From Amphiscolops sp. MND2022 (taxonomy: Eukaryota), in NCBI GenBank assembly GCA_964187785.1, contig OZ076409.1, forward strand, positions 53,632,001 through 53,696,000: a stretch of DNA of 64,000 nucleotides, in the 5' to 3' direction. The translations under genes were made by a program, and so were the position numbers. The notes beneath the pieces were generated by a model, which was not told the DNA's origin, searched no databases, and saw nothing but the letters and a program-made list of their open reading frames with translations. Each line of letters begins with the position of its first letter. The first letter of the stretch is position 1. Below are positions 39,901 to 42,900 of this stretch, one piece after another.

Positions 39901-42900
39901 CGTATTGCCTTGATTAGTGACAGGTAGGGATAAGGTTTGGTGGCACAAAGGCTGCCGTAGCAAATTGTGTTAGGAGTATCTTTGAGTTCTAAAGCCGGAA
40001 TATCAAAGTGGAGTTTGGAGATGTATTTTCTACAGAATTCAATGCCCAATAAGTTTGCTGTTTTGGTTTCGGTTATCCAGAGTTGGAGTTGAAAGCAGTG
40101 TTGTCCATCAGAGTCAAAACTAAAGTTTAGAGTTGTATGACCCAACATCGGTATTTCTTCTCCAGTGTACGTTCTTGTCTTTTGTTTACTTCTCACTACT
40201 GTAATTGGTTGCAGAAACTGAGAAATTTCACAAAAAGTGCGATAGTTGATGATAGAGCAAGCTGCTCCGGTATCTATCATGAATTCGATTTCAAGTCCAC
40301 TATCTTTTTTAGAGTCTCCGGTGGGGAAATAGAAAACATTCATATGAAAGCGTGATTTGAAGTTACTCTCTTCATCTGGCTGCGGAGACCTTAGTAGTTT
40401 AAAGCAAAGTAGTTGGAGATTGAGTTTATCATCTCTTGCGAGTCGTCATCAATGAATTGCACGTTGTTAGAGAGAGCGTTAGAATTGTTCTGAGGGAAAT
40501 TTCTGTTATACTGAGTATTGGAGTTGTTATTCTGCCTTGCGGGAAAGTTGTAGTTATTTTGCCCAGTTCGTTGATTCTGCCCTTGATTCGAATTACTCTG
40601 GTTGTTATGATTCTGATTGCTGAAATTTTGGTTTCTGTTGTACGGTGGACTATAGCCATTACCATATCTTTGTGAAGGGTTGGAATTGTGTTGAGAATTG
40701 GAGTTGTGGTAGTTTTGTGATCCGAAATTCGGTCCCTTTCTCTTGTTGTAGTCATTGGTGAACGTTGGTTTTTTCTGCTGGTTCTCACGATTGTACTGAC
40801 GTTTTCGTTCGTCATCAAAAGCTTTAATTCTGCAGTATTGTAGAGTGTGCCCGTTTCGTCTACAATAGTGACAGAAGCGTGTGGCATTCTGTCTGGATTT
40901 ATTATTCACATCATTGGTTCGTGTGTTAGCTTGATTCAAGGCATTCACTTGTTGTTCTTTCAGGAGTGTTGAAAGTTCTCTTACTTGCTTTTCTAACGAG
41001 TCTAGTTTAGAGTTCTGTTCATTAGTTGAGTTTGGTACAAACTCTGAACTCACTGAGTAAATCAAGTCTTTGTTGGCAACATGGTCTTTGAAATTGTCCC
41101 ATGTTGTATTTGGATGTTCTATCAGGTATTCATGAGCTTTCCTCTTAAGTCCCGAAGGGGTTAGTCCTCTGATTGTGAAGTCAATATACTTCTGATTTCT
41201 CAAGTTTTGTTGAGCATCTCTTTCATTTTGATTAGCTGCTGCATCAATAGGCCATCCTTTGTCTACTGCTTGTTTGACTCTATGATAGAAATTTTTGACT
41301 AGTTCTTCTTTTCCTCTAACACAGTTTTCAGCAGTTATTCTGTGTCTGTATTTGTCTCTGTCATCTGAGAAGCGGGTTATGAAAGCTGTCCTGACTTGAA
41401 TCCAAGTGGGCAGTGGGTTACCTACGTTAAATCCTTCGTACCATTCTGCGGCTGGTCCGCGGAGGAGAGATGAGAAAAGTGCTTTCTTTCTGAAGAGATA
41501 TCTGGCAGCTTCGCCAGCATCGAGTGGGGGTGATCCAAGTGAAAAGTCTATCTTGTTTTCTACTGTCAGGAGAAATGATTTAACATCTTGGTCTGGGTCG
41601 TTCCCAGAGAACTTGTCCAAAGCTAGATCGGGGAAAGAGACTGCGTTCTGAGCCATTCTCAGATTGGTGGTGGTTTGGTTCCTCTTGTGATTGAATTTTC
41701 TTCAGTTAAGGTATGGTTGAATAATACTCGGCAATAGAGTTTTCAATGTCTGTATTGAAAGTGAGTTCACACAGGCAAGTGACAAGGGTGATGAACACAA
41801 GAAAGATTCCAGCAAAAAGCAAATAGTCCGGGTCTTCAGGAGTTATCAATGGTCTCATAGACCTCGGTTATGGTAGGTATGGGTTGATATCGTCCAGATA
41901 GTTAGTTTTACAACAAGCGTGATAAAACTAGTGATAAGGTGAAAGAAAATTAGAAACCAGATTAGAGAGTAGTCCGGGTCTTCCAAAGTTATCATGAAAT
42001 GGGTTTGCCTCACTGGTCGCACCAGTTTGTGAAGTGCGTTGGTTGATTAAAAATGGTTTTTCTTATTTAGATTTCTGGTGCATGCGCTCTGCGCTGGTGA
42101 TTTTTATGTACGAGTTTAATCAAGAAAAGAAATATAATTCTCAATTCACTTTCGATTTACTTTCTGAAGTAATTACGTGAGTTCGATCAGAATAATTATA
42201 AGTCTCAATTATAGTCTATTTTGTGAACTTTTAGTTCACTTCTTGTCTAATTTCTAATTCCAAATCTAAAAGTAGTCTCGTACTTAAAATTTTCGCGACT
42301 GTGCCTTCCTACACTTCAACAAAGTTCGTCTCAGGTGTGAGTTCGGATGGAAGGACTTTATTTCTACGACCCGGGAGAAAAGTGTATTTTGGTCTATGAA
42401 TATGTAAATTGAATCTTTCTTTATTTAGATTAAAGTTGTAATAAATGTCACTCATACAAAAGCAAAGTGCACAAATCAGCATGAATAGAAAGAAAATAAT
42501 TAAATCAAATCTAAAATCTATCTTTGAATAATACGAGTTAAGTTAGTTAGAAAGAAAGTAAGTTATTAAGTTGTTTTTGTGTTTTACCAGATCAAGAGGT
42601 GAAGCCTCTTTATAAGATGCAGCGATAGCTTGCAAGGTGTTTATAGTCCACTAATTGTCACGGACTGAAAAGAGAGCTACTTGCTTCTCTTGATTAAAGA
42701 ACAACAGATTGTTGTACTGGTTTTATAGAGTGCTATACAGCTACTCTTTGTCTCAGATTGAGAACTGTTCGACTTGAAGAGTCAAACAAAAACTAAGTTA
42801 TTTAAGTCTCTTATAACCCAGCTAAAGCTGTGGTTCTTGGTTTAGAGTCAGTATATCTACCAGACTTTGGTTTAGAGTCTACTATAAAGCAGAGACTATT

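Follow-up and report, generated by a model that had tools for sequence, protein, structure and literature searches.

Two paralogous micro-ORFs ahead of gag

The window analysed here, a 64,000-nucleotide stretch of the genome of Amphiscolops sp. MND2022 (contig OZ076409.1 of assembly GCA_964187785.1, positions 53,632,001 to 53,696,000), carries a Ty3/gypsy-type long terminal repeat (LTR) element of 19,249 bp (24965-44213), in which two very short open reading frames (ORFs) lie between the primer binding site (PBS) and gag. The element reads LTR, PBS, ORF1, ORF2, gag, pol (in the -1 frame), ORFs of 106 and 132 aa, env, an ORF of 153 aa, a MATH gene and LTR. It has every part of the env-bearing Ty3/gypsy (Metaviridae) layout, namely LTRs, PBS, target-site duplication, gag, env and a pol encoding protease, reverse transcriptase, RNase H and integrase. 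An earlier note, made from the letters of the sequence alone, had described the two small frames as paralogues of 46 and 50 aa, joined by ATGA, followed by gag after about 50 nt and each containing IT.EDPDY ahead of a hydrophobic stretch. This description proved accurate. Both ORFs were found exactly where the note had placed them, on the minus strand (Table 1); the TGA of ORF1 and the ATG of ORF2 share positions 41855-41858, and 49 nt separate the ORF2 stop from the gag ATG at 41656. The motif IT.EDPDY is present in both and is followed by a 19-residue stretch with a mean Kyte-Doolittle value of 2.45 in ORF1 and 2.55 in ORF2. The paralogy is reflected by 17 of 39 identical residues in BLASTP (E 2e-6) and by a Smith-Waterman z of 9.2, a score reached by none of 1000 composition shuffles.

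Such an arrangement hardly arises from base composition. Two ATG-initiated ORFs of at least 35 aa, each with a 19-residue Kyte-Doolittle mean of at least 2.0, did not occur in any of 2000 dinucleotide shuffles of the 369-nt interval between PBS and gag (mean 0.005 per shuffle). In the whole window (128 kb, counting both strands) there are nine such hydrophobic ORFs of 35-70 aa, ORF1 and ORF2 included. Between the LTR end and gag only three ATGs are present, those of ORF1, ORF2 and gag itself. With a six-row alignment, AlphaFold2 predicted a single helix for ORF2, with a confidence (pLDDT) of 90-93 over residues 11-30. Searches for known relatives were unproductive: Pfam holds no family for either ORF, a sequence search of the PDB revealed no similarity to a solved protein (sole match at E 4.3) and the best ESM Atlas score, 0.78, was uninformative. 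A complex prediction for four ORF2 copies scored 0.01, with the alignment unused.

A comparison of the paralogues over 27 codons revealed 12, 7 and 14 differences at the first, second and third codon positions. The lowest number of changes at the second position is a pattern of protein constraint. A protein-guided pN/pS of 0.55 between the two depends on the alignment and is saturated, so we do not rely on it.

Further support comes from other copies of the family. It is a sizeable one, with 153 members in the gag cluster and homology for 401 of 2409 candidates. A full scan of 1.84 billion representative proteins returned three ORF2 homologues, P0245, P0246 and P0055 (81, 77 and 73% identical), all of them broken copies in which ORF2 runs into longer products; the gag part of P0055 is identical at 162 of 184 positions. 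In the two copies with a readable flank, ORF2 is more conserved than the adjoining spacer when both are translated in one frame (38/47 versus 8/18 in P0245, 34/43 versus 10/17 in P0246; pooled 72/90 versus 18/35, Fisher p 0.002), a comparison with a bias towards ORF2, as it uses pseudo-translations of matches picked by their likeness to ORF2 and long enough to be called. None of the seven substitutions in the ORF2 helix introduces a charge or a proline, and the CxC at the helix end is retained in all three homologues. The earlier note had taken a loss of the frames in sister elements, with only the nucleotide motif retained, as the sign of an RNA signal; for ORF2, the frame is kept in the sister copies. 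No candidate emerged from a near-length protein search with ORF2, and both micro-ORFs were missing from a set of 15 billion proteins, though the 106-aa, TRAF-like and env proteins were present there. Genes of this length mostly go uncalled in databases, so that a missing orthologue is weak evidence. Viral contigs yielded nothing by a single gag query, the gag alignment or the PBS pattern, and nothing matched in contigs of prokaryote genomes.

Altogether, the two ORFs, duplicated in tandem and each with one predicted membrane helix, are likely translated accessory genes; the chance of this reading as a whole, including leaky scanning and a role at host membranes, is about even. Taken singly, ORF2 is quite probably translated and selected as a protein, and for ORF1 the same appears somewhat likelier than its absence.

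The leader in distant relatives and its probable translation

Scanning metagenomes with an alignment of gag yielded eight loci out of 503 pattern matches, and three of the eight (L001, L007 and L008) have hydrophobic micro-ORFs before gag. In L007, with gag at 57% in its N-terminal portion, three hydrophobic ORFs (61, 43 and 41 aa) come first, then a soluble ORF of 119 aa and then gag; three such hydrophobic ORFs were seen in none of 2000 shuffles. L001 shows the end of a first ORF, a hydrophobic ORF of 43 aa and an ORF of 113 aa, and L008 is a broken copy of the L007/L001 type. The two 43-aa ORFs, one from L007 and one from L001, give a gapless alignment (pN/pS 0.50, dN/dS 0.21, p 5e-4), by which measure this pair is under purifying selection, and the 41-aa ORF of L007 is their paralogue. 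T is enriched at the second codon position in the ORFs of both groups (0.45 and 0.39 in the window, 0.43-0.55 in L007/L001). As the window pair and the L007/L001 ORFs are unrelated families in one slot, the alignments indicate that membrane micro-ORFs came to occupy this slot in no fewer than two lineages, with differing sequence families and independent duplications. The 131 nt of L004 show nothing noteworthy, and L002 and L003 do not extend far enough for a judgement.

Some further observations concern these loci. The first ORF of L007 was considered as a homologue of ORF1 and rejected (hhalign probability 0.4%); because it had been a row of alignment A3, seven of the nine matches obtained with that alignment are members of the L007 family rather than homologues of the window ORFs. 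The first two micro-ORFs of L007 (243-575) are in frame and 15 nt apart, and five database copies among P0292-P0298 continue across this junction, showing K, Q, Q, Q or W at the point at which L007 and P0298 stop. These may be broken copies selected by length; a read-through or polymorphic stop is the other possibility. The interval 1-362 of L005 contains several PBS-like TGGTG repeats without ATG.

The window leader itself is largely free of start codons. Taking the TATA at 43834 as the promoter, the putative leader (43809-41657, 2153 nt) contains five ATGs as compared with 20.5 +/- 3.9 in shuffles, none of which (0/1000) had as few; without the tandem array in the LTR, five ATGs stand against 17.0 expected. 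The alternative TATA-like site at 42727 leaves the same five. Controls were not depleted, with 8 versus 7.0 ATGs in U3, 27 versus 30.6 on the antisense strand and 20 versus 20.7 in the region after pol. All five leader ATGs, those of ORF1 and ORF2 included, have a pyrimidine at -3 and lack a G at +4 (by background, a chance of about 0.009). The first strong-context ATG is that of gag, whose start is also strong in L001, L006 and L007. The leader ORFs of these three have weak or middling start contexts. Weak upstream starts, no internal AUG and a strong downstream start, as found here, make up the leader pattern described for rice tungro bacilliform virus (RTBV; PMC5902531).

Leaky scanning is thus a fairly likely main route, as it fits the weak starts, the ATG-purged leader and the lack of a UGGGA motif better than reinitiation does. 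Transcription would start near the TATA at 43834, and 40S subunits would scan the ATG-poor leader of the unspliced genomic RNA, some of them starting at ORF1, some at ORF2 and the rest at gag. A fixed small dose of both microproteins would in this way be coupled to Gag, whose output would be lowered somewhat. The microproteins would insert without a signal sequence, with the acidic N-terminus outside, and ORF2 might be palmitoylated at its CxC.

The earlier note had proposed that the microproteins are made by termination-reinitiation, which may also tune Gag translation. On this view real proteins are made, with ORF2 arising by reinitiation at the ATGA once ORF1 has been translated, as for calicivirus VP2 and influenza B BM2. 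The exact overlap, which is of the kind seen with a termination upstream ribosomal binding site (TURBS), speaks for such a mechanism, and the 46 codons of ORF1 are few enough for some reinitiation. However, the UGGGA motif that defines a TURBS, 40-90 nt upstream of the stop (PMC3542737), occurs neither in ORF1 nor in ORF2 plus spacer, even if TURBS-free cases are described for pneumoviruses in the same source. Moreover, the weak ORF1 start makes ORF2 reachable without it, P0246 carries ORF2 alone, and in L007 and L001 the ORFs do not overlap at their junctions but are separated by 6-217 nt. As the principal route, termination-reinitiation is therefore rather unlikely. The exact ATGA overlap of the window is not conserved in the relatives examined. 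Reinitiation at the ATGA may nevertheless add to the output of ORF2.

The element carrying the pair

The insertion is, by sequence, recent, because the two 2186-bp LTRs are 100% identical and flanked by a GTAC target duplication. The positions of all features are listed in Table 1.

Table 1. Features of the LTR element and of related loci (window positions unless a locus is named).
Feature	Position	Strand	Remarks
5' LTR	42028..44213	-	2186 bp, TG...CA; TATA-like sequences at positions 43834 and 42727; downstream of 43809, 3 ATGs only
86-bp tandem array	~43050-43560	-	within the putative R region of the unusually long LTR
PBS	42007..42024	-	3 nt after 5' LTR, 11 nt before ORF1; 24-nt stretch with PBS matched exactly in L007 and L008
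micro-ORF1	41855..41995	-	46 aa; acidic 10-residue N-terminus, predicted transmembrane helix (residues ~11-29), tail short and weakly basic; start in weak context
ATGA stop-start overlap	41855..41858	-	TGA of ORF1 and ATG of ORF2
micro-ORF2	41706..41858	-	50 aa; predicted transmembrane helix (residues ~12-30) with CxC at its end; tail acidic; start in weak context; three further copies have homologues
Spacer from ORF2 to gag	41657..41705	-	49 nt without ATG
gag	40391..41656	-	421 aa; matches Pfam Retrotrans_gag at E 4.6e-5, slightly short of the cut-off; its ATG is the first with a strong context
T TTA AAC heptamer	40397..40403	-	directly before gag stop, pol open in -1 frame; putative frameshift site
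pol	34884..40343	-	protease, macrodomain, reverse transcriptase, RNase H, integrase; uninterrupted; frame open upstream to gag end
TARG1/OARD1-like macrodomain	39093..39467	-	in pol between protease and reverse transcriptase; E 4e-24 to human C6orf130
106-aa ORF, unnamed family X	32449..32769	-	family sits before gag in distant relatives
132-aa paralogue of family X	31911..32309	-	by sequence comparison
Pre-env region	30818-31910	-	1.1 kb without ATG; five TATA-bearing repeats with TATAAATAACTC, ~145-nt spacing
env-like gene	28682..30817	-	711 aa, class III-type; Pfam Monjiviricetes_fusion E 1e-39
153-aa ORF	28194..28655	-	no Pfam match
TRAF-like gene	27209..28186	-	325 aa, coiled coil and MATH; downstream of env
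3' LTR	24965..27150	-	identical to 5' LTR
X-family ORFs in relatives	L001 270-611; L006 372-725 and 733-1074; L007 925-1284

The heptamer at the end of gag is one that we take to match the slippery-site consensus; no significant fold lies downstream of it (z -0.9). The macrodomain in pol is a candidate eraser of host ADP-ribosylation, and among the matches listed by our literature search a TARG1-like macrodomain in an LTR element was not reported. The TRAF-like gene, from a cluster of 104 members, has Pfam matches only to coiled coil and MATH, corresponding to a TRAF without RING, and its product is possibly a dominant-negative signalling decoy. The repeats ahead of env are likely an internal env promoter; the Oikopleura Tor elements are reported to have one. 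For the 106-aa X protein the fold was predicted confidently (pLDDT 84), while fold searches gave no Foldseek match at E 0.001 in PDB and BFVD, a best VIA Z of 4.1 and no match in the Atlas. Members of this family (106-132 aa) occur in two copies after pol here, while relatives have between one and three of them immediately ahead of gag, so that the X gene moves and multiplies.

Outside these features, a 57-aa ORF in weak context lies in the 5' LTR (42309-42482, minus strand) and is not hydrophobic. Beyond the element, pieces of a host gene with PWI and RRM domains, which we take to be RBM26/27-like, and a reverse transcriptase ORF of non-LTR type are found at 45473-48673 (minus strand) and 52251-54125 (plus strand). 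The genes next to the element mark the host as an animal.

Possible function of the pair and comparison with known systems

If translated, the pair would more likely act as modulators of host membranes than as fusogens. A role in release, trafficking or defence antagonism is our leading suggestion, the least firm part of the whole reading and held with a confidence somewhat short of even, because the element has an env of its own, has captured defence-type genes (TARG1-like, TRAF-like) and shows a quick turnover of the leader slot, by analogy with accessory genes engaged in host conflict such as HIV-1 Vpu and paramyxovirus SH. A link to the TRAF-like gene was also considered and found unsupported, as TRAF-binding motifs are absent from ORF1 and ORF2 and occur once, in P0245 only.

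Several observations weigh against reading the pair as translated accessory proteins. Ten of the 14 residues common to ORF1 and ORF2 have identical codons, and the motif block is near-identical at silent sites, so that an RNA-level signal or recent homogenisation may contribute to its conservation. An ORF1 orthologue was not found in three protein searches. P0246 has PBS, a single ORF2-type gene and spacer, a one-gene layout that dates either from before the duplication or from after a loss, and even its LTR sequence pseudo-translates at 63% over 32 columns, with the first part higher. The micro-ORFs of L007 and L001 have no detectable homology to the window pair (hhalign probability <1%); in the nearest sister, L005, with gag at 68% in its N-terminal portion, the 362 nt leading up to gag contain no ATG ORF, and the 1090 nt of L006 contain soluble X-type ORFs only. 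With regard to translation, L001 and L006 each have strong-context ATGs of 5-codon ORFs before gag, ATG depletion is weak in L001 (47/1000) and L007 (31/1000) and absent in the broken L008 (708/1000), the ATGA junction is not kept, and the start-context rules come from mammals (PMC3542737) and may not be those of the host. Finally, the topology predicted for ORF2 is uncertain, as its helix has no basic flank.

On another view, the importance of the ORFs lies in attenuating translation and in their RNA, as a packaging or dimerisation signal, with incidental peptides that are hydrophobic because the RNA is U-rich. Retroviral packaging signals do lie between PBS and gag, and the shared 14-nt motif has identical silent sites in the paralogues, encloses a CCGG palindrome and occurs as GACCCGGA only twice in the element. 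Yet no significant fold surrounds the two motifs (z -0.06 and 0.22), and six segments covering motifs, ATGA junction and frameshift site gave no significant structure either (best z -1.3). The enrichment of T specifically at second codon positions, the failure of composition-preserving shuffles to produce such ORFs, the better retention of ORF2 than of the spacer and the low dN/dS of the distant pair all argue for proteins, making an RNA-only role quite improbable. A variant in which only ORF2 is functional and ORF1 is a lineage-specific, drifting duplicate draws on the missing ORF1 orthologue and on the single-ORF layout of P0246. But ORF1 differs from ORF2 at 29 of 57 helix bases and is still open, starts with ATG and is as hydrophobic, and absence from databases says little about genes of this length; we consider this variant unlikely.

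Among protein functions, the earlier note had named viroporins, small fusogens and restriction antagonists. M2, BM2 and coronavirus E are viroporins with which the pair shares its size, a single helix and a short acidic N-terminus. The conserved CxC at the ORF2 helix end, a mid-helix His in ORF1 and the pairs His/Thr, Thr/Thr and Ser/Cys at matching positions of the two would also suit homo-oligomeric ion channels aiding assembly or release. The hydrophobic moment of the helices is, however, no higher than in shuffles (p 0.25 and 0.16 for the two ORFs, 0.07-0.40 over five family members), similarity to a solved protein or a Pfam family is lacking, and the distant micro-ORFs have plain hydrophobic helices, all of which renders a channel distinctly unlikely. 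Both a viroporin and a restriction antagonist are candidate readings nonetheless. The fusogen reading, in which the pair would resemble sORF2 or the FAST proteins (small transmembrane proteins linked to fusion) and serve cell-cell fusion for soma-to-germline transfer, fares worst and is very improbable. The slot upstream of gag in the same sense and the single helix are as in MDG1 sORF2, and palmitoylated FAST variants, which might be matched by the CxC of ORF2, exist and lay beyond the published search (PMC11952523). Against this stand the absence of Gly2, and hence of the N-myristoylation motif MGxxxS/T, from ORF1, ORF2 and seven related or analogous ORFs; the absence of a polybasic patch, with two basic residues in the 15 past the helix of ORF1 and none, with four acidic ones, in ORF2; an ectodomain of 10-11 residues as against about 30; a length of 46-50 aa as against 63-107; and the intact 711-aa env. 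Of the functions named in the earlier note, the small-fusogen proposal finds no support; the paralogous membrane micro-ORFs are probably real, with the ORF2 frame kept in other copies.

In summary, the pair is a real feature, and its products are probably membrane microproteins that differ in type from sORF2/FAST. More tentatively, and as a possibility that we rate well below even, a large clade of giant env-bearing LTR elements may use an AUG-purged leader of about 2 kb as an expandable slot, in which membrane microproteins of 40-60 residues are born, duplicated and replaced and are dosed together with Gag by leaky scanning. Along with the TARG1 macrodomain and the TRAF-like gene they would form an anti-defence kit, an invertebrate parallel of the complex retroviruses. 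Small membrane ORFs before gag have until now been tied to env-less insect elements, for which they were proposed to replace env; an env-bearing element, missing fusogen hallmarks, duplicated arrays and differences between lineages point to a second job for such microproteins. The many near-identical copies of the family allow a direct test of selection on ORFs of 46-50 codons and of scanning through a leader of 2 kb.

Vpu, paramyxovirus SH, coronavirus E and influenza BM2 resemble the window ORFs in size, single helix and origin from polycistronic RNA, an analogy without detected sequence similarity. Closer parallels in layout exist among reverse-transcribing elements. ORF I and II of RTBV and the badnaviruses likewise have weak starts, no internal AUG and a close or fused stop-start before the main polyprotein gene, but these are longer, soluble ORFs of plant pararetroviruses whose leader is bypassed by shunting (PMC5902531). 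The LTR elements of bdelloid rotifers have also captured small transmembrane ORFs and enzymes; their ORF3s, however, are of about 220 aa and lie downstream of pol, not in the leader (PMC5408684). The ancient errantiviruses with an env of HSV/gB type share the order LTR-gag-pol-env, a class III-type fusion gene and an animal genome with the window element, which adds about six further ORFs; in the accessible parts of that report there is no mention of small ORFs (sORFs), accessory ORFs or macrodomains, and seven supplementary files lack the PBS, gag and micro-ORF motifs of this element (PMC13524379). In the nackednaviruses, two small ORFs, smORF1 and smORF2, precede the capsid gene of a reverse-transcribing virus, but that virus has no envelope and its smORF2 is FAST-like with 75-114 aa (PMC11952523).

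Within the literature covered, which did not extend to subscription papers and repeat databases, transmembrane small ORFs upstream of gag were described only in the sORF2 preprint (PMC11952523). The micro-ORFs of the window are below gene-caller length and would be missed by the myristoylation filter of that survey. Its Drosophila MDG1-group elements (412, Stalker2, Mdg1) share with the window element two small accessory ORFs before gag (there sORF1 and sORF2), an unspliced RNA and membership in the Metaviridae, and one of their ORFs is a single-pass membrane protein shown to be translated. There, only sORF2 is of membrane type, with 63-107 aa, a myristoylation motif, a polybasic patch and a 30-residue ectodomain, in insect elements devoid of env. 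Here, both ORFs are paralogues of membrane type, 46-50 aa long and without those features, in an element that has an env.

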